64,000 bases of DNA from Candidatus Cloacimonadota bacterium (lineage in GTDB: Bacteria > Cloacimonadota > Cloacimonadia > JGIOTU-2): the NCBI GenBank assembly GCA_049903315.1, contig JBNGBT010000003.1:170466-234465 (forward strand). Direction: 5' to 3'. Each line of letters starts with the position of its first letter. The first letter of the stretch is position 1. The notes under the pieces are model-generated. The model did no database searches, had not been told where the DNA came from, and saw only the letters and a program-made list of their open reading frames with translations. Made by a program: the position numbers and the translations under genes. Shown in pieces: positions 1,378-46,935 of the stretch.

Positions 1378-5488
<4,111 letters not shown>

Positions 5489-5489
<1 letters not shown>

Positions 5490-6781
5490 TATTCACCTCC
5501 CTTAGTTCCAAGTGCCATTGAAACGATTTTTGTCATATGTGTTTCCGGACCATACACTTCTGTCGGAATACCGATTCTTTTACCCATATCTTTCATGTTT
5601 TTAAGACCTTCTTTATAATTTGGTCCACCTCTTCTCACATAGATTTTTACATTGGTGTCTTTTAGTTTGTCTTTATATTCTTCGATTGCCTGGATAATTC
5701 CAGTAAATGTTTTTGCAATATCAGTAAAGTTAGCAATGCCACCACCAATGATCAAAAACTTAGGACGTCCCTGAGGATCCTTTTTTCGAGTCATCAGATC
5801 AAGAACTGTTTTTGTGTATCCGTAAGTGAGTTCTGTGGATGGATTTCCACTATATTCTCCATAATTTGCAAGTTCATTTGTAAATCCGAGATCTACTACT
5901 GTATCAGCATAAATTACAGATGCTCCACCACCGGCCACCAGGTTCCAAATTCTTCCTTCAGGATTTAGAACTGTAAGTTTCAGCGATGCGCCTGTTCTTT
6001 CATCAAGTTCATCTACTTTCTCTTCTTCAGGAGATTTTTCAAGGCCAAATGGGCTTGGGAATTTTAGATCTCCCCACATTTCTGCGCATTGGAATGATGC
6101 ATAATCATCAATTTTTGCTACAGCATCCAGTGCTACAGGTGTTCCGTTCACAAACGTGAAGGGATTCAATTCCAGATAAACAAAATGATACTCAACTACC
6201 ATTTTATAAAGAGCTTTAATAAACTCAGCAATGATATCGGATTTTTTCCCAAGCTCTTTTGGTAAAAAATCTTTCACGTCAAGCTCATCAATTTCTGCAA
6301 ATAATGGGACATCCATTGTTACTACAGAATCCCAAACCTCTTCTATATTAACACCACCTTTTGTTGAGAAGTGAATTGTGTCACTCTCTCTTTTGGTGGT
6401 AATTGCTATGTAATATTCATCATCATGAGGGACGAACTTTTCTACGAGAAAGTAATTTAATTCCCCTGTTGTTGTACCTGTTGTTTGAGTTATAGTAACA
6501 GTTTTATTCATACGTTCATTTATCCAGTCCTTTACGTCAGACCAGGATTTATTCACAAATAAAAGATTGTTCAATCCTCTTTTTCCAAATAGCTGATCCG
6601 GCTTTACAACCAGTTTTTCGTCTTTTAGCCAGGAATTTTCTTCCTCTAATTTTTTCAGATCAGTATTTGCTCCGATCAAAACCTGTTTCGTATCAAATTT
6701 GATCTTTCCATCAGAAAATTTTGGTAACGCCTGAGACATCATTCTTTTAGCGTCATATTCTCGAATACCTTTTTGTGCCAT
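5489..6781 (-). CDS. aclB: ATP-citrate lyase, beta (ATP-grasp / citrate-binding) subunit
   Basis: MAQKGIREYDAK, VVKPDQLFGKRG, AGGGASVIYAD, NYGEYSGNP, IGGGIANFT, VRRGGPNY. TAATG overlap with aclA. Confidence 0.93.
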
Positions 6782-6808
6782 ATTATATCCTCTCTATAAT
6801 TGCCTATT

Positions 6809-8770
6809 TTATTCTTTAATGTTAGTCTGCTTTTTTTTTATTAATGCAAGGGTTCCACCTGCAAGCAGAATTTCTTTTTGTCGATCAGACAGATCATACG
6901 TTGTTTCAAACTCTGTTCCTTTTGATACGTTCTTAACAATTATGTTCTTACCTTCTCGTAATGTTTCTTTTATATTTGGAATTTCAAGTTCATCCGCTTG
7001 TTCTATTTCATTGTAATCATCTTCATTTTTGAAATTTAACGGAAGTATGCCAAAATTGATGAGGTTTGCATTGTGAATTCTTTCCATAGACTTTGCAATA
7101 ACAGCTTTCACTCCCATATACATCGGGCAAAGTGCGGCATGTTCACGGCTGCTTCCCTGACCATATGAAAGTCCTGCAACAATAATATTATCTTTTCCGT
7201 TTTCTTTGATTTCTTGTGCGCGATCATGAAATGTAGGATCAACTACTTCAAACAAAAATTCAGAATATTTTGGGATGTTTGATCGATACTTCATTTTCGA
7301 CCCGGCAGGTATTATGTGATCTGTTGTGATCAGGTCTCCTACTTTCAAAGTTACAACACCGGATATTTTATCTTTAAGTGGTTCTGCTGCTGGAGGATCG
7401 CCAATATTTGGGCCACGATAAATCCCCATCTCTCCCTTAATTGATTCAGGGAAAATGAACATGGAGTCATCAATATAAAATTTGTCCGGCATTTTAATTC
7501 TAGGATATTCAATTTCTATTTTCTCAAGATCTCTCGGGTCTGTAAATTTGCCTGTAATTACAGCGGCTGCTGCAGTTTCAGGACTCACCAGATATACATC
7601 TGCAGATTTTGTTCCTGATCTTCCAAAGAAGTTTCTGTTACTTGTTCTAAGTGATACTGCGCCTGTTTTAGGAGATTGACTGTTACCAATACAGAAACCA
7701 CACGCAGATTCTGCGATTCTTGCGCCTGCCGAAACAATGCTTTCAAAACCACCATCATGTATGATATTTTCAATTACCTGTTTTGAACCGGGTGCTACTA
7801 CAAAGCTTGTATCTTTACTTAGTTTTTGATCCTTTAAGATATTTGCTACAGTCATCATATCTTTGTAAGAAGAATTAGTACAACTTCCTATACAGACTTG
7901 ATCAACATTAATCTCACCGATATCTTTTACAGTGCTGATATTTCCGGGACTATGTGGAGTTGCTGCCATTGGAACAAGCTCGGAAAGATCTATATCAACA
8001 ACTTTATCATATTCTGCATCATCATCAGCGACTAGTTCCAGCCAGTCATCTTCACGGTCTTGGGCTTTTAAGAATTCTTTTGTGACTTCATCACTCGGGA
8101 AAATTGATGTTGTTACTCCGCATTCAGCCCCCATGTTTGTGATCGTCGCTCTTTCGGGAACGGATAGTGTGCTTACTCCAGGTCCACCATATTCAAATAT
8201 ACAACCCACATTTCCTTTAGTTGTAAATATTTCAAGAACTTTTAGTATTATATCTTTTGCTGCAATCCAAGGATTTAGTTTTCCCATTAAATTTATTTTT
8301 ATAATCTTTGGATAAGTTATATAGAATGGACCGCCAGCCATTGCCACTGCCACATCAAGACCTCCGGCACCGATTGCCATCATTCCGATCCCACCTCCGG
8401 TCGGAGTATGCGAATCTGAACCAAGAAGAGTTTTGCCAGGTTTGCCAAATCTTTCAAGCTGAACCTGGTGGCAGATTCCGTTCCCAGCCCTGGAATAAAC
8501 GATTCCATATTTTGCTGCAACAGATTGAAGGTATTTATGATCATCTGCATTTTCAAAACCGATTTGAACAGTGTTATGATCAACATAACTTACAGAAAGA
8601 TCGGTTTTCACTTTTGGAACACCCATCGCTTCAAATTGCAAATAAGCCATAGTACCGGTAGCATCTTGTGTAAGTGTTTGATCGATCCTGATACCTATTT
8701 CAGTACCTTTTTCTGGCTTTCCTTCGATAATGTGATTTGATAAGATTTTTTCTACTATGTTTTTTCCCAT
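6809..8770 (-). CDS. acn: Aconitate hydratase (~650 aa type)
   Basis: TQDATGTMA, GICHQV, GSDSHT, IGSCTN, ACGFCIG, TSNRNF, TTDHI, GSSREHAA; three Fe-S cysteines present. Confidence 0.92.
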   Translation of the reverse strand: MGKNIVEKILSNHIIEGKPEKGTEIGIRIDQTLTQDATGTMAYLQFEAMGVPKVKTDLSVSYVDHNTVQIGFENADDHKYLQSVAAKYGIVYSRAGNGICHQVQLERFGKPGKTLLGSDSHTPTGGGIGMMAIGAGGLDVAVAMAGGPFYITYPKIIKINLMGKLNPWIAAKDIILKVLEIFTTKGNVGCIFEYGGPGVSTLSVPERATITNMGAECGVTTSIFPSDEVTKEFLKAQDREDDWLELVADDDAEYDKVVDIDLSELVPMAATPHSPGNISTVKDIGEINVDQVCIGSCTNSSYKDMMTVANILKDQKLSKDTSFVVAPGSKQVIENIIHDGGFESIVSAGARIAESACGFCIGNSQSPKTGAVSLRTSNRNFFGRSGTKSADVYLVSPETAAAAVITGKFTDPRDLEKIEIEYPRIKMPDKFYIDDSMFIFPESIKGEMGIYRGPNIGDPPAAEPLKDKISGVVTLKVGDLITTDHIIPAGSKMKYRSNIPKYSEFLFEVVDPTFHDRAQEIKENGKDNIIVAGLSYGQGSSREHAALCPMYMGVKAVIAKSMERIHNANLINFGILPLNFKNEDDYNEIEQADELEIPNIKETLREGKNIIVKNVSKGTEFETTYDLSDRQKEILLAGGTLALIKKKQTNIKE

Positions 8771-30997: not shown

Positions 30998-31609
30998 TTA
31001 CTCTTTCAAGCTCTCGACAAGTAGCCGAATTACAACCATTCCGGGATCGTCTACCCCAATCGTTTTATTGCCGAATATCCGTGCCCTGCCCTGTTTGCAC
31101 GGCAATTCTCTAAAATGATCTAAGGTTTGAGTAGCAGCTTTGTCTACTGTTTCCAATAGTGTATGTTTATTATCAGCATCTTTAAGTGCATCACGAATTC
31201 CTGCTAGTTCATCGAGGACTGTCTTATCGCCCAATTTGCTTTTTCCTCTTAAAGCCATTTTTTCAATCACAACATCAAGGATATGTGGCAATCTTTCCCA
31301 TGGAACTTCTGACATATTTTTTGTTTCTTTAGCAGCAGCCATGAGTCCCGTTGCGAAAAGTGTGGCAAAAGATGAAGCACGGGTACTTGTAAACGCCTGT
31401 GCACACATCATGAATGACATGCCCACATCATCAGGAAATTCAGGAGTTTTAGTCATTATTGCACTAAAGCCATTTTTCATAGTGATGCCTATGTCCCCGT
31501 CACCGATAAAATTATCACGCTTGTTCAATTCATCAGCAGATTTTTCCATCTTATCTGCCATTAATTTGATTGCTGTTATTATGGTCTTTGTAGTGAATCC
31601 ACTACTCAT
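30998..31609 (-). CDS. dhaL: Dihydroxyacetone kinase family subunit L (DAK2)
   Basis: DNFIGDGDIG, GDKTVLD, GRAR, DPG motifs; overlaps the dhaK stop. Confidence 0.85.
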   Translation of the reverse strand: MSSGFTTKTIITAIKLMADKMEKSADELNKRDNFIGDGDIGITMKNGFSAIMTKTPEFPDDVGMSFMMCAQAFTSTRASSFATLFATGLMAAAKETKNMSEVPWERLPHILDVVIEKMALRGKSKLGDKTVLDELAGIRDALKDADNKHTLLETVDKAATQTLDHFRELPCKQGRARIFGNKTIGVDDPGMVVIRLLVESLKE

Positions 31610-32612
31610 AACATCCGACTTTCCAGAAAGCACAATCACATGGTGCTTTGAGAAGAAGCTCAAGCTCTTCATCCAGAAGACAGATCGTGAGTGTCATGCC
31701 TGCCATTTCCATCGACGTTGCATAGCGTCCAACTAAAGGCATGACAATTTCAACACCAATATCATCGAATTTCGATTTTATATATCTATAAGCTATGTAT
31801 AATTCTTCTAGAGGTGTTGCCCCGAGACTGTTTACCAGCACAGAAATCCGATTTCCCTTTTTTAATGGCATATCAGCAAGAATAAGTTCTAACATTTCTT
31901 GAGCAATCTCGTCCGCTTTTTTCAATGTTCCGCGCCATACACCAGGCTCGCCATGAATCCCCATACCCATTTCCATTTCATCCTCTCCGATCTCAAATCC
32001 GGGTTTTCCTGCCTGTGGTACAATGCACGGCGTTAAAGCCATTCCAATTGAGCGGCAAGCATCAGCAGCTTTCTGCGCCACTCTGGTTACTTCAGTAAGG
32101 CCGGCTTTCTCATCGGCTTTTGCACCCGCGATCTTGAACGCATAGACTAAACCGCCAGTTCCACGTCGTTTTTCTTTTTCCTCGGGAGGAGCACTTGCAA
32201 CATCATCAGCCAGTGTCACTGTCGTTGACTCAAAGCCTTCCATCTCAAGCATTTCACCAGCCATGTCGAAATTCATGACATCGCCGCCGTAATTGCCATA
32301 GAGACGCAAAACACCTACACCGCTGTTTGCCTGACGCATGGTTTCTGCGATTTGTTCTGAAGTAGGGGAACAAAATACATCTCCGATCGCTGCAGCATCA
32401 AGGAGTCCTTTGCCGACATAGCCGGTAAAGATAGGAAGATGTCCCGAACCGCCACCTGTAACGATGCCGACTTTTCCTTTTATTGGTGCTTCAGGTCGAA
32501 CAATGACACGTCCTTGTGGACCAGTCTGCTTGTAATATTCAGGATGTGCAGCACATAATCCCTCGAGCATTTCGGCAACATAATTTTCAGGATCGTTTAA
32601 AATCTTTTTCAT
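31602..32612 (-). CDS. dhaK: Dihydroxyacetone kinase family subunit K (DAK1)
   Basis: GGGSGHLP, NYGGDVMNF, DDVASAP, RRG, GMGIHGEPG, TSMEMAG. Confidence 0.9.
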   Translation of the reverse strand: MKKILNDPENYVAEMLEGLCAAHPEYYKQTGPQGRVIVRPEAPIKGKVGIVTGGGSGHLPIFTGYVGKGLLDAAAIGDVFCSPTSEQIAETMRQANSGVGVLRLYGNYGGDVMNFDMAGEMLEMEGFESTTVTLADDVASAPPEEKEKRRGTGGLVYAFKIAGAKADEKAGLTEVTRVAQKAADACRSIGMALTPCIVPQAGKPGFEIGEDEMEMGMGIHGEPGVWRGTLKKADEIAQEMLELILADMPLKKGNRISVLVNSLGATPLEELYIAYRYIKSKFDDIGVEIVMPLVGRYATSMEMAGMTLTICLLDEELELLLKAPCDCAFWKVGCYE

Positions 32613-32636
32613 CAATATGCCCCTTGTATATAGGTG

Positions 32637-33635
32637 TTATTTCATTTCAGCTAATAACTTTTTGATCACATCTTTCGAAGTGATGCCTTCCGCTTCTGCG
32701 GCAAAGTTCAAAAGAATTCTGTGCTGAAGGATCGGTGTGGCAACAAATTCGATATCTTCCATTGATGGTACAGTTCGTCCATTCAACGCAGCGCGTGTTT
32801 TTGCTGCGAGAACAAGATACTGCGAAGCGCGAGGACCAGCTCCCCAGTTAACCCAGTTTTTCACAAAGTCGGGAGCATCTTCAAATTTTGGACGGGAGAG
32901 TCGTGCAAGCTTTACTGCTGTTTCAAGAATGTGTTCGGGCAGGGGTATCTTGAAGATAAATTTTTGCAGCTTTGTGATTTCTTCTCCGCTCACAATTTTT
33001 TGAATGGTTTCAAATTCCCTGCTTGTGGTTATTTCAGCAATTTGTTTTTCTTCTTCATATGAAGGATAATCTATGTCGATATGAAAAATAAACCTATCGA
33101 GCTGAGCTTCTGGTAAAGGGTAGGTGCCTTCCTGTTCGATGGGATTCTGAGTTGCCAGCACAAAGAATGGAGGAGAGAGAGGAAAAGTATGATTTCCAGC
33201 TGTGACCTTTCTTTCCTGCATTGCTTCAAGGAGTGCGGATTGCGTTTTCGGAGGAGTCCTGTTTATTTCATCTGCAAGAATAATATTAGCAAAAACCGGT
33301 CCTTTCACAAACTGGAAAGCGCGCTTGCCTGTTGTCTTATCCTCTGTGAGAATATCTGTGCCTGTGATGTCTGAGGGCATAAGATCAGGTGTGAATTGTA
33401 TCCTGCTGAAATTGAGGTCGAGTACCTGCGAAATAGTGCTGATCAAAAGTGTTTTTGCCAATCCGGGCACACCGACCAGCAGGCAATGTCCATTTGCAAA
33501 AAGAGAGATAAGGAAATATTCGATCACCTTATCCTGTCCCACAATGACTTTGTGGATTTCGTTCACTATCTTTGCTCTGGTTTCAGAGAGGTTTTCTATA
33601 GTTTTTACGTCGCTGTTTGAGACAATATTATCCAT
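32637..33635 (-). CDS. moxR: MoxR-family AAA+ ATPase
   Basis: GVPGLAKT, RIQFTPDLMPSD, ADEINRTPPKTQSALLEAMQE, ATQNPIEQEGTYPLPEAQLDRF. Confidence 0.93.
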   Translation of the reverse strand: MDNIVSNSDVKTIENLSETRAKIVNEIHKVIVGQDKVIEYFLISLFANGHCLLVGVPGLAKTLLISTISQVLDLNFSRIQFTPDLMPSDITGTDILTEDKTTGKRAFQFVKGPVFANIILADEINRTPPKTQSALLEAMQERKVTAGNHTFPLSPPFFVLATQNPIEQEGTYPLPEAQLDRFIFHIDIDYPSYEEEKQIAEITTSREFETIQKIVSGEEITKLQKFIFKIPLPEHILETAVKLARLSRPKFEDAPDFVKNWVNWGAGPRASQYLVLAAKTRAALNGRTVPSMEDIEFVATPILQHRILLNFAAEAEGITSKDVIKKLLAEMK

Positions 33636-33816
33636 GCAATATCCTTTATTAAATACTTTGAGATAGATTCAGGAGTGTTGTTTTTGGATGTCAAGATTGA
33701 GGATAGCAGATTAAAGATGTCTAGTCGTTGCGAGGATTAAAGTGTGACTTTTATCCAGATTTGGTAGATAGGAATACTGGATACATGCTTTTGTAAAATA
33801 ACATATGCGTTCAACT

Positions 33817-33868
33817 AGTTACGCAAAATTCCAATCTTGCGTACTCAACATCGGAATGTTGAGTTACT
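33817..33868. repeat. REP-like inverted doublet of palindromes
   Basis: ACGCAA-aattccaatc-TTGCGT hairpin directly followed by ACTCAACAT-cgga-ATGTTGAGT (perfect 9-bp stem). A 36-bp part recurs inverted at 61155-61190. Confidence 0.65.
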
Positions 33869-33898
33869 CCTCACTTTTAATCCTCTACTCTTTACGCA

Positions 33899-34540
33899 CT
33901 ACGGCTTAATAATACCCAGCCAATCTCCAAGCAGGAAATTCAACCTTCCGATAAGAAGCGAGATACGAGCCATCACCGTGTAACCGAATGCAGCACCGAA
34001 ACTTACCATAAGGAAATATATGCCGACCCGGGCAGTTACTCCGAAAGCTCCCTCATGTTTCTTGCTGAAGAAAAAGTACACAATGCCAGATATTGTGCCG
34101 ATTATGAGAATAAGTTCGCCAGCGATCTGAGCAGCATTACTTGTTGCAAAGGGATTCAGCATGGTCGCTGTTAATTGGTTAAGTACATCTGACTGAAGAT
34201 AACGCTTGAAGAACAATCCGGCAGTTGTTCCCACCACAACTGCAAGTGCGTACCTGCTTACCCAATCAATAGTAGGTATCAACCTGCAGAGCATCAGGAT
34301 ACCGAGGAATGCCGGTATCAGAAGGATGAAATTATGAGTAAAATCCGAAGTAACAGGGATAAAAAGATTCGGCATGAGTATGTTGTAGATTGTATATATG
34401 AACCAATAACCCGCAGAAATTCCGATGAAGATCTGCTCAGCTATTTTGTAAAAAGGATTGTCCTTATAAAGAAAGCTGAAGATAGCGAAAGTAAGAAAAG
34501 CCCCGACCCAAATCCCGATTCTATCCATAATTATTGCCAT
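33899..34540 (-). CDS. Uncharacterised multi-pass membrane protein (DUF6754-type operon)
   Basis: About 6 hydrophobic helices; SFLYKDNPFYKIAE and FGAAFGYTVMARISLL are motifs I associate with this conserved cluster. Confidence 0.7.
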   Translation of the reverse strand: MAIIMDRIGIWVGAFLTFAIFSFLYKDNPFYKIAEQIFIGISAGYWFIYTIYNILMPNLFIPVTSDFTHNFILLIPAFLGILMLCRLIPTIDWVSRYALAVVVGTTAGLFFKRYLQSDVLNQLTATMLNPFATSNAAQIAGELILIIGTISGIVYFFFSKKHEGAFGVTARVGIYFLMVSFGAAFGYTVMARISLLIGRLNFLLGDWLGIIKP

Positions 34541-34551
34541 TTTTCCTCCGC

Positions 34552-35394
34552 CTATGCTTTCAATGTGTCTTTTTGTTTCCTGGTTGCAAAATAGCCGATA
34601 TTGCCGATCAGGATGAACAGGATTATTACGAGATGTGCAACGGATTGGGCATCCATTCCTTTTGTTGCAAAACCAGGTTTATTGATGAGGAGTTCAAATT
34701 CCGCTGCGCCTTTCAATCCGCCAAGCAAACCGACAAGCTGCTGCTGTTCGTTCACATAGGGCAGCATCGTGGGCGCTTGTACTGCGGTTGTACCCCCAGC
34801 AACTGGTTTTCCAAATGTATCATGAACGATCATAACCCACTGTTTCAATCCCGGATCACCTGCAGATAATGAGATCATACAACCGATTTTATCGAAATTC
34901 TTTATGCCCTTCATGATGGGGAATTCGTCGATTGGATTTCCCCCTGCATCGGCAGGAAAGGTGCTTCGAAAATCCTTTGCCATATGATTGATCGTCACCA
35001 TACCGCCCGATTTATAACCGAGATTAATAAAGTCGATACCATATTCGATATTTGGGTATTCCGTACTCACTATTTCGTATGCTTCGTTGCACATCTGCAC
35101 GCCCATGGGCCAGAGTGCTGTTGCAATTATCCGCAATCTAAGTGTGAACGCCTGCTGCATCAAAGCAATTGCCATTGGTTGTATTTCCGGTTTGGTCGAA
35201 GGATCATAATCAAAAGAAATGAGAATGCGTGTACCGGGTTCCAATTCTTGAAGAAGATCATAGACACTCTGCACATTCTCGGTCACTTCCAGGTTGAATC
35301 CCAATGTCCATATTAGAGGAATTGCCACGCCGAGTAGGATGAGCAGGAAAATAATTCGACGATCAATATTAAGGAATCTCTCAAAAATTTTCAT
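34552..35394 (-). CDS. Uncharacterised membrane-anchored alpha/beta protein (DUF6754-type operon)
   Basis: N-terminal TM, soluble domain (SFDYDPS, YGIDFINLGY, GLLGGLKGAAEFE), C-terminal TM. Confidence 0.7.
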   Translation of the reverse strand: MKIFERFLNIDRRIIFLLILLGVAIPLIWTLGFNLEVTENVQSVYDLLQELEPGTRILISFDYDPSTKPEIQPMAIALMQQAFTLRLRIIATALWPMGVQMCNEAYEIVSTEYPNIEYGIDFINLGYKSGGMVTINHMAKDFRSTFPADAGGNPIDEFPIMKGIKNFDKIGCMISLSAGDPGLKQWVMIVHDTFGKPVAGGTTAVQAPTMLPYVNEQQQLVGLLGGLKGAAEFELLINKPGFATKGMDAQSVAHLVIILFILIGNIGYFATRKQKDTLKA

Positions 35395-35395
35395 C

Positions 35396-36091
35396 TTATT
35401 TACCCCCTAAATATGAACGTTCGATGCCAAGAATGATGCGCAGAGAGCTGCCGATCACACCCAAACCGGCGCAGATCATTATCGCTCGCTGACCCGCAGT
35501 ATTGGGATATTTCATAATGAAAGAGGCAATATTAGGCAAATGCAAAAATCCAAGTGAATCAGGGATCCATCCGGTCAAAGTGCTTCCGATCGTTGTTCTA
35601 CCAAGCATGACGAGAACTGCTGCGATAAGGAGTAAAGTAGATTCGGGACTGCGTGCACGAAATGCCCTGTACGATGCGGAAGCCATGAAGAATGCGAGCA
35701 GAGAGAACATCGTGGCAGAAAGGTTTTCAAATAAATATTTAAAGATGTAATCAAAGGGTTTATATCCTAGGAAATTGATCATTTTTTCACTTGCAGGAAT
35801 GAGTCCGGGCTGCTGCTGTGTTCCCCATAAAATACCACAAATGACCATGATGGAAAAACTCACAAGCGCAATAATGAAGTATGGCCAGTTCGGTGCTTTG
35901 CGGGATATTTTTATGATATTGACCTTGAACAAGCTGAGCTGCCCGAGGATGATAGCAAAACCGGAAATGATCAAAAACCATCCTTCGAGACTGGTCGAAA
36001 GACTATTAAAGGGTTTGTGTGGAATGAATTCAGAAACAATGATAAGCATGCCAACCAAGAAGGTGATGAGCATAGGAATTTGTCTTCTCAT
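35396..36091 (-). CDS. Uncharacterised multi-pass membrane protein (DUF6754-type operon)
   Basis: About 6 TMs; ATMFSLLAFFMASASYRAFRAR, PNTAGQRA, LRIILGIERSYLG. Confidence 0.7.
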   Translation of the reverse strand: MRRQIPMLITFLVGMLIIVSEFIPHKPFNSLSTSLEGWFLIISGFAIILGQLSLFKVNIIKISRKAPNWPYFIIALVSFSIMVICGILWGTQQQPGLIPASEKMINFLGYKPFDYIFKYLFENLSATMFSLLAFFMASASYRAFRARSPESTLLLIAAVLVMLGRTTIGSTLTGWIPDSLGFLHLPNIASFIMKYPNTAGQRAIMICAGLGVIGSSLRIILGIERSYLGGK

Positions 36092-36107
36092 GTGTCCTCT
36101 TTATGTA

Positions 36108-37214
36108 TTAGTGGGTTGCCAGAAAATCTTTCAGGAAATGTATGCCGAACATTTCGAGCACTACACCGACAAGAAGGGTAAATATTATAATTGCTTTTCC
36201 CACATCCTGACCTTTCAAACTTCCAAGCTGATTTGGTTCATTTGAAAGATATGCAGATGCAGCGAAGAGTTCTTCACCGATCAACGTATAGTCACAGGCA
36301 GCAACGAAGAAGGGGATCTGGGTGGGCATTGCAGTGCCTGCGATCTGAATTGCACCGCTCTCAAAACCTGTTTCTGCAAGAATAAGAGATTCTGCGTAAA
36401 ATGCGCCGAGATAGAAAGTTGCAGCGGGTTTTTCTCGAAGGATTATGCCGTCAACGCCTGCGACATATCCGAACTGATCATCAGTAAGATAAAATACTGA
36501 ATCCGGCTTAAAGGCATCGGGTCTGCCTGCACGAAGATAGGCTTCCTTTACGATTTCCTTTGCTGTGGAGAGCACCATTGAACGGCATACCGGAACATGG
36601 ATTGTAGAATCATATTGGGCTACTTTTTCTGCGAGATGCCCGAGAATGTTCAGTCCCGCAATAGTCTGCATATCATCGAGATCCATGATGCCGGGAACAA
36701 ATAAAAGGGGTTTTCCCATTTCTGTAGCCCGTCCGACTGCTTCTTCGATCGTGTCAAGTCCGCTGATCTTTCTTATGTAGAGCCGCTTTCCTTTTCGTGC
36801 AGAGAAAATAAAATAAGTGATCGCACTTCCAAGTAGGATTGTCATAATGAGCAAAGATATTTTATCAGTATTGAACCATTCTGCCTTTGCTATAGCTGAC
36901 GCACTGAAACTTTGCAGTGTTTCACCTTCTATGTTCAACACAGAGAGTTTATAGAAATATTCCTGTCCGTCCTCGATATTTTCATCATCAATAAATTGCT
37001 TCATAAGAGGTGTAACCGTAGCGATCTCAATATAATTTTCTTTATCAATACTGCGGCTGATGGTCATCTCGGGAAAAGACAGCGGGACGTTCCATTCCAG
37101 CAGTATCGCACCACCATCATCATTTGGGTTGTCTGCAGCAGTGAAGGTCATATCTTGGGCATATAACGAAAAAGCAAAAAATATACAAAATATAATAAAA
37201 AAAGATACTCTCAT
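36108..37214 (-). CDS. FN3-like extracellular domain plus DUF6754-like domain membrane protein
   Basis: Signal peptide; DNPNDDGGAILLEW...YFYKL (FN3-like); TM; IRKISGLDTIEEAVGRATEMG, AESLILAETG, CDYTLIGEELFAASAYL; C-terminal TM. Start placed at MRVSFF. Confidence 0.75.
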   Translation of the reverse strand: MRVSFFIIFCIFFAFSLYAQDMTFTAADNPNDDGGAILLEWNVPLSFPEMTISRSIDKENYIEIATVTPLMKQFIDDENIEDGQEYFYKLSVLNIEGETLQSFSASAIAKAEWFNTDKISLLIMTILLGSAITYFIFSARKGKRLYIRKISGLDTIEEAVGRATEMGKPLLFVPGIMDLDDMQTIAGLNILGHLAEKVAQYDSTIHVPVCRSMVLSTAKEIVKEAYLRAGRPDAFKPDSVFYLTDDQFGYVAGVDGIILREKPAATFYLGAFYAESLILAETGFESGAIQIAGTAMPTQIPFFVAACDYTLIGEELFAASAYLSNEPNQLGSLKGQDVGKAIIIFTLLVGVVLEMFGIHFLKDFLATH

Positions 37215-37371
37215 GCCTAATACCCCATGCATAAATTTAATTTGAACTATTAATCCCAATTTCCTATTTGAAATGTCAATAAATTACACTTCAATATAAA
37301 TTTATTTGGGAAATTTGCAAAACTTTACAAAAATTTCAGAAATCAACATTTGATTATTTTAGGAATAGTAT

Positions 37372-38370
37372 ATGAATATTTTAATTTCAGGCGGAACAGG
37401 ATTTATCGGATATCATTTAATAAAACGTCTTGTAAACAGAGGTCATGCGGTTACGTGTATTATAAGACAAAATTCAAATATTGAGAAATTGAATGGATTT
37501 AATCTTCAGTATATTTCATATGAAGAAATAAAAAATAGTGAAATAGATTTTTATGGATATGATGTTGTATATCATCTTGCGAGTATACGTCATAAATGGG
37601 GAACAAGCTGGAATGAGTATGTGAAATCCGGGCAAAATTATACTGAGATGTTGTTAAAATCTTCCGTTGGAAAAATAACACAATTTATATTTTGCAGTTC
37701 TGTAGCTGTTTACGGATATACAGATACACTGCCGATCTCGGAAAGTTCAGAGAAAAGCCCCCATAATCTATATGGTAAGATGAAGCTGGAATGCGAAAAT
37801 CTCGTTACATTATATAACGAAAAGTATGATTTACCCTATACAATTCTTCGTCCATCAGTTGTATATGGCGAAAATGATCCACAAGGGATGATGACTCGAC
37901 TTGTCAAGATGATTTACGATAACTCATATCATACTATTGGGAATGGAAACAATAGAATTCAATGTGTTTATATTGAAGATTTTATTGATATTCTCGAAAA
38001 GATAGGAACAAATTTTCATCCAACTAATGATGAATTTATTATTTCATACCAGTATCCAATTACCATTAATGATTTAGTTAAATTAATTAGAAACGAATTA
38101 CATAAGGAAGTTACCCTTGACATTAAGATTCCAGTATGGTTTGCACGATTTTTTGCCATGATAATTGAAAAGGCTTATCAAGTCGGCATTAAATTAACAG
38201 GACCAGAACCAATAATTGCTAAAGAGAAAGTGGATACAATGGTAAAAGATGTTGTCTATGATACTTCAAAAATTAAAAGTGCATATGATTTCGCGTCCAC
38301 CGTTTCATATAAGCAAGGAATTAACAGATTGATACGCAGTTTAATACAGGAGAATAAATGGAAGGTATAA
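37372..38370 (+). CDS. NAD-dependent epimerase/dehydratase (extended SDR)
   Basis: GGTGFIG, SSVAVYG, YGKMK (YxxxK), ILRPSVVYG. Confidence 0.9.
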   Translation: MNILISGGTGFIGYHLIKRLVNRGHAVTCIIRQNSNIEKLNGFNLQYISYEEIKNSEIDFYGYDVVYHLASIRHKWGTSWNEYVKSGQNYTEMLLKSSVGKITQFIFCSSVAVYGYTDTLPISESSEKSPHNLYGKMKLECENLVTLYNEKYDLPYTILRPSVVYGENDPQGMMTRLVKMIYDNSYHTIGNGNNRIQCVYIEDFIDILEKIGTNFHPTNDEFIISYQYPITINDLVKLIRNELHKEVTLDIKIPVWFARFFAMIIEKAYQVGIKLTGPEPIIAKEKVDTMVKDVVYDTSKIKSAYDFASTVSYKQGINRLIRSLIQENKWKV

Positions 38371-39814: not shown

Positions 39815-42800
39815 ATGAAAAGTAAGGTAATTATATGCATTCTTTCTCTTGTTCTGCTAGGGATTTTCTATACTTTACAAGCTGATATTATTACTGTTAA
39901 TGCTAATGGCGGATATCAATATTTAACAATTCAAGATGGTATTGATGCCGCAAGTAATGGAGATACGGTATTAGTTTATTCTGGAACTTATATCGAAAAC
40001 ATTAATTTCTATGGCAAGGACATCATTGTAGCTTCCTTATACTTTAGCACTGGAGATGCCGGATACGTAGAGAACACAATTATTGATGGTGGCGGAAACG
40101 GCTTTGTAGTACATTTTGAGAATGGTGAAACCGAATCTGCTTTGCTTCAGGGTTTTACAATTACAAACGGATACGCTGAAGATGGTGGGGGTATTAAATG
40201 TAAAAATGCAAGCATGCCGGTTATTGATCATTTGATTATTACAGGTAATGCAGCTTTTGACGATGGCGGCGGTGTTGCGTGCTATACTAATTCAGCGATG
40301 AGAATTTCGAATTGTGTTTTTTTTGAAAATGTTGCTGACGATAATGGAGGTGGCATCTTTCTGAATCATTCTACAGGATTAATTGAAAACTGTCTGTTTT
40401 ACGAGAATATTTCTAACGGCGGAAGTTCTGCAATAGATTGTTGGTCGTCCGATCCAATGATAATTAATTGTTCTTTTTTTAATAATGTATCCTACGGATG
40501 GGCAACGATTGGTATATGGGACACCTCAAGTCCTTCTATATTAGATTGTATAGTATCAAATAATACTGGTTCGGGATTTGTGTTTCATTCTCAGTCAGAA
40601 GCGATAGTTGAATTTTGTAATTGTTATAACAATTCCTTTGGTTCCTTTTCTGGTTCTGTACCACCAGGTCTTGGAGTAATCAATCAAGTTAATGCAAACA
40701 ATGATCCATGTGACGAGTTTTATAATATTTTTATGGACCCGGAATTAATTGATCCTATAAATTCAGATTTTACGCTGTTCCCTTCATCACCCTGCATAGA
40801 CGCAGGTATTTCCGATACAATCGGGTTCAACCTTCCGCAATTCGATCTCGATGGTAATCCTCGTGTCGTTGATGGAAATGGTGATGGATTAGCAATTATT
40901 GATATGGGGTGTTATGAATTTGATGGAATGACCAATTATGTCTTTACTCGTATTACTAGTGGAGATATTGTTAATGATGCTGGCTATTCTCATGGGAGCA
41001 GCTGGATTGACTATGATAATGATAATGATCTCGATCTCTTTGTTGCTAACTGGAATGATCAGGATAACTTTCTCTACCAAAATGATGGAAATGGAACATT
41101 CACAAAAATCACAAATGGTGTCGTTGTAAACGATGGGGGTAAATCCTACGGATCAAGCTGGGGTGATTTTAATAATGATGGTCATATCGATGCTTTTGTA
41201 AGTAATATTTCAGATCAAGATAATTTTCTCTATCAAAATAATGGAGATGGAACATTTCTTAAGATTACTGAAGGTGATATTGTTAATGACGGCGGCAAAT
41301 CCAACAATTGCTGTTGGGGTGATTATAATAATGATGGATTTCTCGATCTGTTCATAGCTAACAGTGGCTCTCAAAATAATAGTTTGTATTGCAATTGTGG
41401 AGATGGTTCATTTTTGAAAATAACTAACGGTATATTAGTAAATGATGCAGGTCAATCAAAAGGTTGTTGTTGGGCGGATTATAACAATGATGGATACCTT
41501 GATTTGTTTGTTACAAATTCAGATAATCAAAATAACTATTTGTACTGTAATAACGGAAATGGCACTTTTACAAAAATAACAGATGGTCCTATCGTTAATG
41601 ACGGAGGTGATTCTCGGGGTGGTGGTAGCTGGGGAGATTATGATAACGATGGCGATCTTGACCTTTTTGTTTCGAACAGGTTGCAAAACAATTTCCTTTA
41701 TTGTAACGATGGAGATGGCACTTTTACTAAAATCACTGCAGGGGATATTGTAAATGATGGTGGAAATTCTCGAGGAAGCAGCTGGGCTGACTATAACAAC
41801 GACGGATATCTGGACCTGTTCGTATCCAATGACGGTGGAAATAACTTCTTATATAAAAACAATTGTGATGGCACTTTTACCAAAATCACTGATGAAGTTA
41901 TTACTAATAATGACGGCGTTTCTGTAGGATGTGTATGGGGAGATTATGATAATGACGGTGACCTAGACATATTCGTAAGTAATTTCTGGGATGATAATAA
42001 TTACTTATATAAGAATAACGGTAATGATAACAACTGGATAAATATCAAATGTGTTGGTACTATTTCAAATAAAGCTGCCATCGGCACAAAAGTAAAAGTG
42101 AAAACGATCCTGGATGGAAGCCCAATGTGGCAGGTGAGAGAAATTTCAGCATTGAATGGATACAGTAGCCAAAATAGTCTGAATGTCGAGTTCGGTTTAG
42201 AGAGCAGTACACTTATAGATTCGGTAATCGTAAGTTGGCCAAGTGGTACTGAACAAATCCTAACAAACACAGCGTCTAATCAGTTTATTACAATTACTGA
42301 GCCTTTTTCTTCTCCTGATCAAATTGCACTTCAAATTCCCACAGTAAATGCACTTCCCGGAGATACAGTTCTTATGCCTATGAATGTTCAATTTCCCCAA
42401 GATTCGACTTTCACGTCCGCAGAAATTCAAGTAGGTGGATATTTGGGATCATTAGAATTTGTTGAATTAATTGCTGATTGCAGCCTGGTTGGCGATGCCG
42501 GATGGTTGTATGAATCTAATGAAAACGACAGCGTAAACACAATATGGATGGCTGGATCTGAAGCCATATCCGGTGAAGGTACTCTAATCTGGATGAAATT
42601 TATAATACCGGAAACTGCAGCTGGTTTTATTCCAATCATACTTGTAGATGCGTTGTTTGATACGGGTGTGATACCTGTCAATGTAACTTCTGGTGGTGTA
42701 AATGTTGTCACACCATTGTATGGAGATGTAGATTTCAACGGATTGGTACAAGCCTATGATGCTTCTATGATCCTGAAATATCTTGCGGGCTATATTAATC

Positions 42801-43618
42801 TTGATGCTCTGCAACTTACAGTTGCTGATGTGAGTCTTGATTCAACAGTTTCTGCTCTTGATGCAACGCTGATTTTGCAGTATGGTGTTGGCATTATTGA
42901 TACTTTGCCCTATGAACCAGGTCCAGACTACATTGCAGATGGTGATATCTCAATGGAAGATGCAGCCTATACAGGAATTCCGGTTGAAATACCTCTATAT
43001 ATCACAAATTCGGAAAAGATTTATTCATTCGAAGGCTTGATCAATTTTGATTCTCAGCTTCTCACATTATTAAGCATTTCTTGGTCAGAATACTTAGATG
43101 GATGTAATATTCAATATAATGTAAATGAAGGAGAATGTAGGATCGTTGGGGCGGATATCGAACCATACAACCAGAACGGCATATTTGCAACGTTACGATT
43201 CTATGTTAATGAGGAATTTGCTCCAAGCGACTCCACAATTATCTATTTCGACAGGATGCGCTGGAATGAGAACGATGTAATGTATAATGTCGATCGTGCG
43301 AAGATTTTTAACAATTTTGGAATAAATGATCCTCATGAGTACGAATTCATACTTCATCAGAATAGTCCAAATCCCTTTACGCATACAACCAAAATTCAAT
43401 ATTCAATCCCATCGGAAAGCTCAGTCTCTCTCAAAATATACAATATAAAAGGTGAATTTGTTAAGGAACTTATCGATGATTATAAAGATAAAGGGACATA
43501 TGAAGTTGCCTGGGATGGGAGAGATAAATATGGAAATAAGGTTGTAAGTGGTGTATATTTCTATCAATTTATTAGTGGCGATACAAAAGTAATTAAAAGG
43601 ATGATACTACTTAACTAA
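39815..43618 (+). CDS. Large secreted modular protein: beta-helix, 7x FG-GAP-like repeats, ASPIC/UnbV, cohesin, dockerin, cohesin, FlgD-Ig/T9SS-type C-terminus
   Basis: GGAGG RBS, signal peptide, TIQDGID..GDTVLV..GTY.ENI, SPCIDAG, DxDNDGxLDL repeats, SSQNSLNVEFGL..VSWPSG, duplicated dockerin loops, QNSPNPF..WDGRD..SGVYFY. Confidence 0.85.
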   Translation: MKSKVIICILSLVLLGIFYTLQADIITVNANGGYQYLTIQDGIDAASNGDTVLVYSGTYIENINFYGKDIIVASLYFSTGDAGYVENTIIDGGGNGFVVHFENGETESALLQGFTITNGYAEDGGGIKCKNASMPVIDHLIITGNAAFDDGGGVACYTNSAMRISNCVFFENVADDNGGGIFLNHSTGLIENCLFYENISNGGSSAIDCWSSDPMIINCSFFNNVSYGWATIGIWDTSSPSILDCIVSNNTGSGFVFHSQSEAIVEFCNCYNNSFGSFSGSVPPGLGVINQVNANNDPCDEFYNIFMDPELIDPINSDFTLFPSSPCIDAGISDTIGFNLPQFDLDGNPRVVDGNGDGLAIIDMGCYEFDGMTNYVFTRITSGDIVNDAGYSHGSSWIDYDNDNDLDLFVANWNDQDNFLYQNDGNGTFTKITNGVVVNDGGKSYGSSWGDFNNDGHIDAFVSNISDQDNFLYQNNGDGTFLKITEGDIVNDGGKSNNCCWGDYNNDGFLDLFIANSGSQNNSLYCNCGDGSFLKITNGILVNDAGQSKGCCWADYNNDGYLDLFVTNSDNQNNYLYCNNGNGTFTKITDGPIVNDGGDSRGGGSWGDYDNDGDLDLFVSNRLQNNFLYCNDGDGTFTKITAGDIVNDGGNSRGSSWADYNNDGYLDLFVSNDGGNNFLYKNNCDGTFTKITDEVITNNDGVSVGCVWGDYDNDGDLDIFVSNFWDDNNYLYKNNGNDNNWINIKCVGTISNKAAIGTKVKVKTILDGSPMWQVREISALNGYSSQNSLNVEFGLESSTLIDSVIVSWPSGTEQILTNTASNQFITITEPFSSPDQIALQIPTVNALPGDTVLMPMNVQFPQDSTFTSAEIQVGGYLGSLEFVELIADCSLVGDAGWLYESNENDSVNTIWMAGSEAISGEGTLIWMKFIIPETAAGFIPIILVDALFDTGVIPVNVTSGGVNVVTPLYGDVDFNGLVQAYDASMILKYLAGYINLDALQLTVADVSLDSTVSALDATLILQYGVGIIDTLPYEPGPDYIADGDISMEDAAYTGIPVEIPLYITNSEKIYSFEGLINFDSQLLTLLSISWSEYLDGCNIQYNVNEGECRIVGADIEPYNQNGIFATLRFYVNEEFAPSDSTIIYFDRMRWNENDVMYNVDRAKIFNNFGINDPHEYEFILHQNSPNPFTHTTKIQYSIPSESSVSLKIYNIKGEFVKELIDDYKDKGTYEVAWDGRDKYGNKVVSGVYFYQFISGDTKVIKRMILLN
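40943..42022 (+). repeat. Seven tandem ~52-aa FG-GAP/VCBS-like coding repeats
   Basis: Consensus FTKITxGxIVNDGGxSxGxxWGDYxNDGxLDLFVxN...NNFLYxNxGDGT occurs seven times. Confidence 0.85.
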
Positions 43619-44444: not shown

Positions 44445-45191
44445 CTATAAGTGAATTGCTTCTGCAAAATCTTTGATAAGATTGGTCTGGTCATTCTTTT
44501 CTATAGCAGTTCCAATCACTATAAAATCAGCACCTGCGGATACTTTTTCTCTGGCTTCCTGAGGAGTTTTTATTCCACCGCCGATGATCATTGGTATAGA
44601 AATGTTCTCTTTGACTTTCTTTATCATATCTGAAGGCACAGATTGTTTTGCTCCGCTTCCTCCGTCAAAAAAAATAAGCTTCATACCAAGATATTGTGCA
44701 GCAAGTGCGTGTGATACTGCAATATCATATTTGGTCCTTGGTATTGGAAGGCTGCTGCTCATAAACTGAACTGAAGTGAGTGATCCGGATTCGATAAGGA
44801 AGTAACCAGTAGGAATAGCTTCCACATCATATTTTTTGATAAGAGGAGCTGTCCTAACTTGTTCACCAATAAGCAATTGAGGATTCCTGCTGCTCATCAT
44901 GCTGAGGAAAAGGATTGCATCTGCATAGGGTGAAACAAAATTGAAAATTCCCGGAAAAACGAGTACGGGTATTGTCACTTGTTCTTTTATGACCCTCACG
45001 GTTTCATTAAAATTATCTCTAACCATCAAGCTGCCACCGACCAAAATGACATCAACACCGCTGAGCTGACATTTTTCTGCAAGCTTTGCGGATTCCGAAG
45101 GTGCTTGTGTGTCAGGATCTATGAGACAAAAGAAACCCGCTTTTTTCTCATTTTTTAATGAATATAAAAATCGTAATATAGTATCTTTCAT
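44445..45191 (-). CDS. Geranylgeranylglyceryl phosphate (GGGP) synthase, group II-like
   Basis: LIDPD, ILVGGS, FPG, FLSMMSSRNP, PTGY, DGGSGA, GGGI, GADFIVIG. ATGA overlap with the upstream gene. Confidence 0.9.
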   Translation of the reverse strand: MKDTILRFLYSLKNEKKAGFFCLIDPDTQAPSESAKLAEKCQLSGVDVILVGGSLMVRDNFNETVRVIKEQVTIPVLVFPGIFNFVSPYADAILFLSMMSSRNPQLLIGEQVRTAPLIKKYDVEAIPTGYFLIESGSLTSVQFMSSSLPIPRTKYDIAVSHALAAQYLGMKLIFFDGGSGAKQSVPSDMIKKVKENISIPMIIGGGIKTPQEAREKVSAGADFIVIGTAIEKNDQTNLIKDFAEAIHL

Positions 45192-46024
45192 TGCGCCACC
45201 CATAAAATAACTAAAAATACAAGCATATGTATTTTCATAAAACTTTCTGAATATTTTGCCGTCTTTGTGATCGGTTTTATTAAAAGAATTATCAAGTTAA
45301 TAAAAAGTAATAATAGGATACCGATTAGTAATACAATAAAGAATGCTAACGAGTAAAATTCCGGATAACCCCAAATAATTGTTGCTGCGAATCCTATCCA
45401 GAACAAAAGTGCCAGGAGAAGGGTTTTTTTGTCACCCCACAAAATCGGCAGCGTTTTTGCTTCCGCAGATCTGTCGCCATTCTTATCTTCTATGTCTTTC
45501 ACAAGTTCTCTTATGATAGTATAAAAAAAAGCACAGAGTCCTACAAAAAAAGCATTTCTGAGATTACTTGTAATAAAGCTTCCAAAGATAAAGGTTGAAG
45601 CGGTCACGAAAGCGACAAGTAGATTTCCCAAGAAATGTATTCTTTTACTTTTCCATGCATATATAAAAAGCAGTAATGAATTAAATGCAGCAATTGCGAT
45701 CATCCAAGGATTGCGCAGAAATATACTGATAATTATTCCCAAGGCAAAAAGGCAGATCCCGTAATATTTTGCTTTTAATGGAGTGATCAGTCCAGAAGGC
45801 AAAACTCTTTCTTTACGATTGATCATATCGATCGAATAGTCATAGTAGTCATTGAGAACGTAACCTCCCCCTGAAATAATCGCTGCAGCAATGCCTGCGA
45901 GAAGGGGAAAAAGAAGCGGGAACACTGCTACTTTGTAGTATGCTCCGAAGAGAACTGCAATCAATACAAAGAAAAAATTCAGCGGTCTGAGAATACGAAT
46001 ATATGCGAAGAAGGTTTTTATCAC
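45188..46024 (-). CDS. DGGGP-synthase-like UbiA prenyltransferase
   Basis: RPLN, NDYYDYSIDMINRKERVLPSG, GNLLVA and RELVKDIEDKNGD..KTLP are typical of the DGGGPS subfamily. Adjacent to GGGPS. Confidence 0.85.
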   Translation of the reverse strand: MIKTFFAYIRILRPLNFFFVLIAVLFGAYYKVAVFPLLFPLLAGIAAAIISGGGYVLNDYYDYSIDMINRKERVLPSGLITPLKAKYYGICLFALGIIISIFLRNPWMIAIAAFNSLLLFIYAWKSKRIHFLGNLLVAFVTASTFIFGSFITSNLRNAFFVGLCAFFYTIIRELVKDIEDKNGDRSAEAKTLPILWGDKKTLLLALLFWIGFAATIIWGYPEFYSLAFFIVLLIGILLLLFINLIILLIKPITKTAKYSESFMKIHMLVFLVILWVAQ

Positions 46025-46935
46025 TAGGGAATTCTGTCATGAATGCGTTCTACAACATCTAGGAGAACGCTATTGTGTGGTATATATTTGATGATATTCT
46101 GTGCGTCTTGGATGAGTTTTTGAGCTTGTCGCTTTGATTCTTCTATGCCAAGAAGAGTAGGATAGGTGACTTTTTCATTGCGCTGATCTTCGCCGGATTC
46201 CTTGTCAAGTATGTCGTCTGCTCCAACCTCATCAAGGATATCATCTATAACCTGATAAGCAAGCCCGATATTCAACGCAAAGTCGCTCAATGCATTGGTG
46301 ATCTGCTCAGTAGCGCCTGCGAGAATGCATGCACAGCGCTCTGCAGAACGGAGAAGTGCCCCGGTTTTTTTGAGATGAATATCCCTCAAAATATGCAGTT
46401 TCACTCTTTTTTGCGAGGCTGTAATATCAACAACCTGTCCGCCGATCATGCCTCTAGTGGATGCTGCTTCGATGAGTTCTTCAAGGCACTGGATCGCTTT
46501 TTTGCTATTGCGCAGCTTGAGAACTGTCTCGAATCCTTTGGTCATAAGTGCATCACCAGCAAGGATAGCTATTGCATTGCCAAATTTCTTATGACAGCTT
46601 GCTTTTCCACGTCGCTCATCGGCATTATCAATAAAAGGGAGGTCATCATGTATCAAAGAGGCGGTATGCAGCATCTCGATTGCACAGGCGACAGGGAGTA
46701 CTGGCTGCACAGCTCTTTTATCGCGTTTGTTTGCAAGCATTTCATAGGTTGCCAACATCAATATAGGACGCAGACGTTTTCCTCCAGCCAATACGGAATA
46801 TCTCATCGCACGATGAATTATCTCGGGTTTTGTGCTGTCAGAATCGAGATATTTCGAAAGAGCTTTATTGATAAGCTCTCTTCTGCTTTCAAAATATTTA
46901 TCTAATATCAACAATCCTCCTAGGATCAATTTCAT
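46024..46935 (-). CDS. Short-chain polyprenyl diphosphate synthase (probably GGPP synthase)
   Basis: GGKRLRP, FARM HTASLIHDDLP..D....RRG, GQVVD, KTG, SARM DDILD. The true start may be a TTG just after the AGGAGG near 46915-46922. Confidence 0.88.
   Translation of the reverse strand: MKLILGGLLILDKYFESRRELINKALSKYLDSDSTKPEIIHRAMRYSVLAGGKRLRPILMLATYEMLANKRDKRAVQPVLPVACAIEMLHTASLIHDDLPFIDNADERRGKASCHKKFGNAIAILAGDALMTKGFETVLKLRNSKKAIQCLEELIEAASTRGMIGGQVVDITASQKRVKLHILRDIHLKKTGALLRSAERCACILAGATEQITNALSDFALNIGLAYQVIDDILDEVGADDILDKESGEDQRNEKVTYPTLLGIEESKRQAQKLIQDAQNIIKYIPHNSVLLDVVERIHDRIP

Follow-up and report, generated by a model that had tools for sequence, protein, structure and literature searches.

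What do four adjacent membrane-protein genes do when they recur together at two to six copies per genome, near-universally in two phyla, and yet three of the four proteins have no family entry? This question is raised by a locus in a 64,000-nucleotide stretch of DNA (the window) from a Candidatus Cloacimonadota bacterium (assembly GCA_049903315.1, contig JBNGBT010000003.1, positions 170,466 to 234,465), whose 2.96-Mb host genome is 96% complete and has Cloacimonadota metagenome-assembled genomes (MAGs) as its closest public relatives. The genes, which we call A to D, follow one another in the same orientation on the minus strand of the window: A at 36108-37214 (368 amino acids (aa) from its ATG), B at 35396-36091 (231 aa), C at 34552-35394 (280 aa), and D at 33899-34540 (213 aa). 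The list of open reading frames (ORFs) places intergenic gaps of 16, 1, and 11 bp between them, just as an earlier note on this DNA, made from the sequence alone, had described when it spoke of four tightly spaced genes. A TTG at 37259 offers an alternative start for A, adding 15 aa; we take the ATG at 37214 as the likely start, since 368 aa is also the length of many relatives.

We favor, with fair though far from complete confidence, the reading that A-B-C-D is one of two genomic copies of a four-subunit inner-membrane unit, and that this unit belongs, as its membrane part, to a larger ATP-linked machine not described so far. We read it in this way because other lineages carry an actin-fold ATPase in the same operon.

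A Collinear Cassette Shared by Several Phyla

A one-genome-per-species scan for related loci returned 33 loci, which belong to Cloacimonadota, Ignavibacteriales, Zixibacteria, Eisenbacteria, and other MAGs. Together with a paralogous locus of the window's own genome (L003; L, G, C, and P numbers are our handles for loci, genomes, contigs, and proteins), they contain the 47 A genes counted here. We showed that B, C, and D follow in this order behind every A gene with at least 2600 bp of downstream sequence (33/33). The remaining 14 of the 47 are cut by contig ends and are followed by B, BC, BCD, or nothing, i.e., by consistent partial orders. Moreover, two to three whole cassettes stand in tandem in seven loci (L022, L025, L027, L029, L030, L031, and L033). 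This strict collinear co-occurrence, observed in several bacterial phyla, bears out the statement in the earlier note that the set is conserved in bacteria.

The genome under study holds a second, diverged A-B-C-D cassette, located on contig C69 (L003 6179-11194). The A protein of this paralogous cassette is 934 aa long, a ~640-residue outward region replacing the single FN3 domain carried by the A protein of the window, and such long-form A genes, of ~945 aa, recur in other Cloacimonadota genomes. The spread of the cassette can be followed with the Pfam family DUF6754, to which A belongs. This family was found in 193 of 201 sampled Cloacimonadota genomes (144/151 of the high-quality ones; 59/61 genera), mostly with two or three matches each, and in all 121 genomes of the phylum of locus L025 (121/121), mostly with five matches; 14 well-known control genomes gave no match. 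The profile of C retrieves at least 3580 proteins; among the 120 listed, those with a name are called "hypothetical protein", and Pfam domains are absent from all. The D profile retrieves 2697 cluster representatives at E ≤ 1e-3 (1960 at E ≤ 1e-10). One D homologue, at L012 9669-10289, aligns over residues 8-213 (tblastn) while its longest ORF is only 135 aa, a case in which a frameshift or sequencing error is possible.

The searches assigned A-D to no transporter, channel, or enzyme family, and no match to a characterized transporter was obtained. Because the cassette is strictly conserved and matches no characterized family, a new membrane complex, as proposed in the earlier note, is the right frame for this locus.

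A GlmL-Like ATPase Module Accompanies the Cassette in Other Lineages

Contig C69 of the same genome also carries three consecutive genes, for a 120-aa protein, a 632-aa ATPase, and a 374-aa partner. The 632-aa protein matches Pfam MutL (PF13941) at E 1.5e-125. It reaches 214.4 bits against the NCBIfam GlmL equivalog (cut-off 475) and 164.4 bits against the GlmL family TIGR01319 (cut-off 204), both under the cut-offs, and a search by sequence found no solved relative of it. The ATPase alignment keeps DCGSTTTK and DIGGATTD, presumably the two phosphate motifs of ASKHA proteins, and the ATPase of this genome is 65% identical to that of L027, across phyla. The 374-aa partner has a weak barrel-sandwich-hybrid signature: RnfC_N is matched in 4/4 of its homologues (best E 6e-4) and NQRA_N in 1/4, all of these matches being weak and under the Pfam cut-offs.

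In five genomes of other phyla (G201-G205), each with five to six DUF6754 matches and a single PF13941 gene, we found this sole PF13941 gene near a cassette in all cases (5/5). In two of the five (L041 and L042, from genomes G204 and G203, respectively), the small protein, the ATPase, the partner, A, B, C, and D follow one another on one strand. In L025 and L027 (genomes G201 and G205), the ATPase gene is divergent from tandem cassettes and lies within 1.3 kb of them, and in G202 the distance is 8 kb. The latter gene, from Zixibacteria, stands in two adjacent pieces in different frames (G202:C2:2137746-2139180), possibly through a frameshift or an assembly error. An extra protein of ~255 aa, with a signal peptide and a C-terminal transmembrane (TM) segment, is encoded between the ATPase and the partner in the Ignavibacteria-type loci L025 (3780-4556) and L027 (231-986, minus strand), and also in the metagenome locus L122; there is none at that position in the window's own genome.

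The same arrangement was found in metagenomes. A search with the ATPase retrieved 80 metagenome loci, in which the small protein precedes the ATPase in 64 of 73 cases, and the partner follows it in 56 of the 59 with room. Where at least 3000 bp of downstream sequence are available (47 loci), same-strand A-B-C-D genes come after the partner in 12, and all 12 are among the 23 whose ATPase is less than 68% identical to the query. In many lineages, the soluble module is thus probably transcribed with A-B-C-D. No mutase genes stand beside the ATPase in the ATPase loci examined. The earlier note had remarked that the operon contains no ATPase; this is true of the operon in the window, but the self-contained unit devoid of ATPase to which the remark pointed is doubtful, since the module is present elsewhere in the genome and in the same operon in other lineages.

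PF13941 is also widespread in Cloacimonadota (195 of 201 genomes). The six genomes without it are six complete single-contig genomes of 1.5-1.6 Mb, all from the genus g10 (G002, G005, G008, G017, G023, and G064), and DUF6754 is missing from them as well.

A 968-aa ATPase-partner fusion is encoded elsewhere on contig C69 (L040 3211-6117, minus strand) and is kept full-length in 5/5 other Cloacimonadota genomes, at 42-46% identity. Two ABC-type permease genes precede it here and in 0/3 other genomes, and we regard this link as coincidental. An ORF at L033:835-2682 was ruled out as an ATPase homologue.

Predicted Architecture of the Four Proteins

Protein A matches DUF6754 over residues 110-364 (E 8.5e-124; 412.2 bits against a gathering cut-off of 27) and covers positions 2-256 of the 257 of the profile. 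Hydropathy and charge counts give it a signal peptide, an outward FN3 domain (~residues 22-114), a TM helix at 119-137, the DUF6754 domain, and a C-terminal TM helix at 342-360. The external FN3-like domain pointed out in the earlier note is real: titin FN3 is matched by the A profile at E 1.7e-24, and in the AlphaFold2 (AF2) model residues 22-111 align with 7jgu_A (Z score 12.3, root-mean-square deviation (rmsd) 1.7 Å over 84 residues), the Pfam fn3 family itself being absent from the matches of A at E ≤ 0.01. Across 32 sequences representing several phyla, ~65 columns of the conserved domain of ~200 residues are invariant. The AF2 model of A has a predicted local distance difference test (pLDDT) value of 71.8, and helices and strands alternate in the first half of this domain. 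The stretch 249-312 shows the highest conservation, yet its pLDDT is 30-50, as might be expected of a surface that becomes ordered only on contact with a partner. The structure search with the whole A model returned a list filled by FN3 matches, none of them informative on the DUF6754 domain, and the named clusters of the ESM Atlas gave no usable match for this domain.

Protein C consists of an N-terminal TM segment, an outward Rossmann-like alpha/beta domain, and a long C-terminal TM helix, and its AF2 model is well defined (pLDDT 90.4; predicted TM-score 0.86). The model aligns with MT0777 (1kjn_B, Z 10.2) and with the TrkA ring 3l4b_A (Z 9.2, rmsd 3.4 Å over 128 residues). Since Z scores of 8-10 are common to sirtuins, short-chain dehydrogenases/reductases, and sugar-binding proteins, we consider the fold generically Rossmann-like. 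In the alignment, the loop after the first strand reads FDYDP..PE..PM and is not a glycine-rich nucleotide loop. Foldseek gave no match to the C model at E ≤ 1e-3, and a profile search of the PDB with C returned nothing credible.

B and D are polytopic. B has ~6 TM segments with both termini inside and conserves the motifs ...ASASYRAFRAR... and ...GIERSYLGG; D has 6-7 TM segments, with SFLYKDNP.YK and YFFFSK.H.G as its invariant motifs. At E ≤ 0.01, B, C, and D matched no family of Pfam or NCBIfam, save a 20-bit chance match of D to LspA, and scans for weak Pfam matches over all B, D, and C homologues gave nothing consistent. For B, weak TMD0_ABC matches occur in 13/32 members (best E 2.9e-4), all under the cut-off, the profile search of the PDB yielded nothing credible (best, K2P channels at E 0.035), and the ESM Atlas returned unnamed clusters only, with Planctomycetota and Chloroflexota the commonest. 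D had no PDB relative even at E ≤ 10. The outward loop of B between TM3 and TM4 is variable. Among the 60 longer B relatives found, at least 14 have FG-GAP/VCBS repeats, which in P0148 lie between TM segments 3 and 4, and in P0124 this loop holds a helical insert. B and C are cleanly fused in one protein, P0141.

The orientation of these proteins was predicted by the positive-inside approach, from Lys+Arg counts averaged over alignments of 28-32 homologues. A has 4.7 such residues after TM1 against 2.0 before it, whereas in C the two termini carry 3.9 and 4.2, and the sides facing the domain 1.8 and 2.8. This charge bias therefore places the conserved domain of A in the cytoplasm and the domain of C outside the cell. 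Hydropathy, together with the AF2 models of A and C, also upholds the alternation, reported in the earlier note, of a TM-flanked soluble-domain protein with a ~6-TM protein. By contrast, the weak similarity between the soluble domains of A and C, from which a pseudo-symmetric 2+2 complex had been proposed, found no support in profile comparisons. The quoted motifs exist and both domains show a helix/strand alternation, but hhalign gives a probability of 2.5% for A against C and of 0.4% for B against D, and of at most 1.4% for the trimmed domains in local, low-mact, and global modes. Because profile similarity is absent and the two domains have opposite predicted orientations, simple 2+2 pseudo-symmetry is unsupported at the profile level. 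A complex prediction of B + C + D + A(110-368) gave 0.75, 0.64, and 0.76, with 0.00 and 0.00 for the A-replaced controls and 0.70 for the C-replaced one, values that count neither for nor against binding.

This architecture brings to mind a membrane enzyme or energy-converting complex similar to Na+-NQR or RNF, whose task would lie in the chemistry of an envelope or redox substrate and not in transport. On layout alone, such a complex is a genuine alternative. Indeed, the subunit sizes and layout resemble those of NqrD/NqrE, NqrC, and NqrA, the partner of the ATPase has the RnfC_N and NQRA_N matches described above, and the near-universal presence of the cassette in whole phyla is what a core function would show. 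Moreover, an ApbE flavin-transferase gene (L003 11233-12297) directly follows the paralogous cassette in the genome under study, and it does so in 2/2 genomes of the same family. We hold such a complex to be improbable nonetheless. ApbE is not adjacent in 3/3 genomes of other families, and its adjacency was judged local; B and D have no Rnf-Nqr match at E ≤ 1 (32 B and 28 D homologues); the alignments of B, C, and D contain no invariant cysteine; the partner matches fall under the Pfam cut-offs; and the cassette is linked in other lineages to an ATPase, which NQR and RNF are not known to have.

A Probable ATP-Linked Membrane Machine

In the ATP-linked machine that we favor, the soluble part would be the C69 trio, i.e., the 120-aa protein, the GlmL-like actin-fold (ASKHA) ATPase, and the barrel-sandwich-hybrid partner. 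B and D, with 12-13 TM helices together, would form the membrane path, while C would place its Rossmann-like domain on the outer face. A would span the membrane with a variable binding-type domain outside and the conserved domain inside, the latter being the likely dock of the ATPase module. A single module of this kind would be shared by several interchangeable membrane units, and the job of the whole would be the ATP-linked transport of a substrate. Three points here are inferred: the assembly of the four proteins into one complex, the docking of the ATPase on A, and the transport of any substrate. Transport is probably the job of the unit. It is the most economical assumption because of the ~16 TM segments per unit, the variable outward domains, the many diverged copies, the conserved cytoplasmic domain, and the linked ATPase.

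Several observations weigh against an ATP-linked machine. No ATPase gene lies in or adjoins the window operon, and linkage was seen in 0/24 of the metagenome loci whose ATPase is at least 68% identical to the query, a group called Cloacimonadota-like from its unlinked layout and not from a taxonomic assignment; this agrees with the unlinked layout in the genome under study. The genomes with linked operons represent few lineages, some of them kin (G201 and G205 belong to one phylum, and G203 and G204 share flanking genes). Within Cloacimonadota, co-distribution says little because both gene sets are near-universal, and the joint loss in g10 counts as one event because it concerns a single lineage. 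Moreover, two genomes, G069 (93% complete) and G163 (80% complete), have PF13941 and no A or B match. Profile searches yielded no transporter family or PDB relative for B or D, and the flanks of the cassettes contain no conserved substrate clue. Finally, the A and B parts of the fusion P0146 are joined abnormally, probably as the artefact of a frameshift.

Some of these observations are what one would expect of a self-contained secondary transporter or channel, driven by ion gradients, for which the ATPase module would be a frequent neighbor with another job. Such a transporter would explain that cassette and ATPase are unlinked in the genome under study and in 24/24 Cloacimonadota-like ATPase loci with room, and that G069 and G163 have the ATPase and no detected cassette. 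Polar residues are also conserved within TM helices, namely Q250, H254, and N265 in the C-terminal helix of C (invariant in 28/28 sequences) and E354 of A (present in 19/32). We nevertheless consider a self-contained transporter unlikely. The cassette is joined on the same strand to the ATPase module in 12 of the 23 metagenome loci with a more distant ATPase and in two of the five genomes, cassette and ATPase are both lost in the genus g10, the large and extremely conserved cytoplasmic domain of A has no obvious role in a simple carrier, and no known carrier or channel family is matched.

An ATP-linked machine could be specified further, as a new class of ATP-driven transporters in which a shared GlmL-like actin-fold ATPase, along with its small protein and its barrel-sandwich partner, docks on the cytoplasmic DUF6754 domain of interchangeable units, the outward domains (FN3, FG-GAP) tuning the substrate. 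We put this forward tentatively, as a possibility that we ourselves find rather doubtful. If true, it would add a fourth primary transporter motor to the ABC, P-type, and rotary ATPases, as core equipment of whole uncultured phyla. A membrane machine driven by an actin-fold ATPase would be without precedent, and it would account for a large block of the "hypothetical" membrane proteins of anaerobic digesters, sediments, and hot springs. The seven-gene operon forms of L041 and L042 offer compact constructs for expression and cryo-electron microscopy.

Flanking Genes and Transcription Signals

A Pfam scan of 82 flanking ORFs revealed no conserved neighbor apart from the ATPase module; TPR-GGDEF proteins, TPR kinases, M28 peptidases, and cargo of the type IX secretion system are each found in few loci. 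Some of these neighbors would suit a surface-sensing or signaling complex, in which the outward FN3 or FG-GAP domain binds a ligand and the cytoplasmic domain of A relays the signal. Indeed, in L010, L011, and L012 the gene immediately behind D encodes a TPR-GGDEF protein, in L018 and L023 the cassette is bordered by TPR histidine kinases, and a fragment of a methyl-accepting chemotaxis protein lies upstream in L033. However, such neighbors are seen in some Cloacimonadota loci only and differ between loci, A-D contain no known signaling domain, and the two to six diverged copies, the ~16 TM segments per unit, and the ATPase operon are more easily reconciled with a machine than with a sensor. 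A signaling role thus appears very unlikely.

Downstream of D, and on the same strand, the window contains moxR (32637-33635), then dhaK and dhaL. The earlier note had stated that moxR follows under a promoter of its own. It does follow, after a gap of 263 bp; promoter-like sites in 32500-37500 are at chance level (13 found against 12.5 ± 3.4 expected). The position of moxR might suggest that the unit works with this downstream MoxR AAA+ ATPase, the more so as the same-strand order recurs in L004, L006, and L020. These are only 3 of 34 loci, from the three closest Cloacimonadota relatives whose sequence extends to this point, with MoxR proteins 84-98% identical; MoxR is not found beside the paralogous cassette or in the loci of other phyla, and the 263-bp gap and a hairpin separate D from moxR. 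We give a partnership with MoxR hardly any credit. The hairpin is a perfect 9-bp inverted repeat with a 4-nt loop (33843..33864, minus strand), located by direct reading 35 nt past the stop codon of D and lacking a T run. It could be a candidate transcript end; the terminator scan did not flag it.

Upstream of the cassette, the hexamer TTGACA proposed earlier as the promoter of the four genes is present at 37274..37279 (minus strand), 60 nt upstream of the ATG of A, but its role as a promoter is without support. The promoter scan paired no -10 box with it, and since it is unpaired and such sites occur at chance frequency, we do not take it as evidence of a promoter.

Other genes of the window deserve mention. 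A divergent block upstream of A, ~2.6 kb away, contains the gene of a 1267-aa protein (39815-43618) with a beta-helix, six FG-GAP-like repeats, ASPIC/UnbV, and cohesin-like parts; the parallel with the FG-GAP inserts of B relatives is probably a coincidence. At 44445-46935, PcrB (similar to geranylgeranylglyceryl phosphate synthase, GGGP synthase), a UbiA prenyltransferase, and a polyprenyl synthetase are encoded in a row; there are reports of genes for archaeal-type ether lipids in Cloacimonadota, a member of the FCB group. Another block, at 1378-8770, encodes a monomeric isocitrate dehydrogenase, two ATP-citrate-lyase-like proteins, and an aconitase.

Comparison with Known Systems

DUF6754 (PF20539) is a catalogue entry without function that covers A alone: A is a full-length member, and B, C, and D lie outside any family. 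A literature search, whose coverage left out most subscription journals, found no paper naming DUF6754, PF20539, or PF13941.

Among characterized systems, the RCK/KTN proteins (TrkA, KtrA) invite comparison with C, whose domain aligns with the TrkA ring 3l4b_A, a generic match; in the alignment of C no glycine-rich loop appears, and the domain is predicted outside the cell. The likeness to Na+-NQR and RNF is one of layout: two six-TM subunits of ~200 aa, bitopic subunits with domains on opposite sides of the membrane, and a soluble subunit with a barrel-sandwich-hybrid domain, putative in the present case. It remains architectural only, as no membrane-subunit family is matched, no cofactor motifs were seen, and an ATPase is present.

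Group II ECF transporters and some ABC importers share one energizing ATPase module among several membrane units. The logic is the same here, with one ATPase module for five to six membrane units, dispersed or in tandem, per genome in G201-G205, and the likeness stops at this logic. ABC_tran (PF00005) has no match in A-D or in the flanking genes at 30998-38370, no EcfT or S-component family is found and there is no sequence relation, and the ATPase has the signature of the actin/Hsp70 fold (PF13941). The closest known relatives of the linked ATPase are GlmL/MutL, the accessory protein of glutamate mutase, and Or-4, as it matches PF13941 and the NCBIfam GlmL models. Compared with GlmL, the linked ATPase is ~170 residues longer, scores under the GlmL cut-offs, and is accompanied by a small protein, by a barrel-sandwich partner, and, in other lineages, by A-B-C-D.

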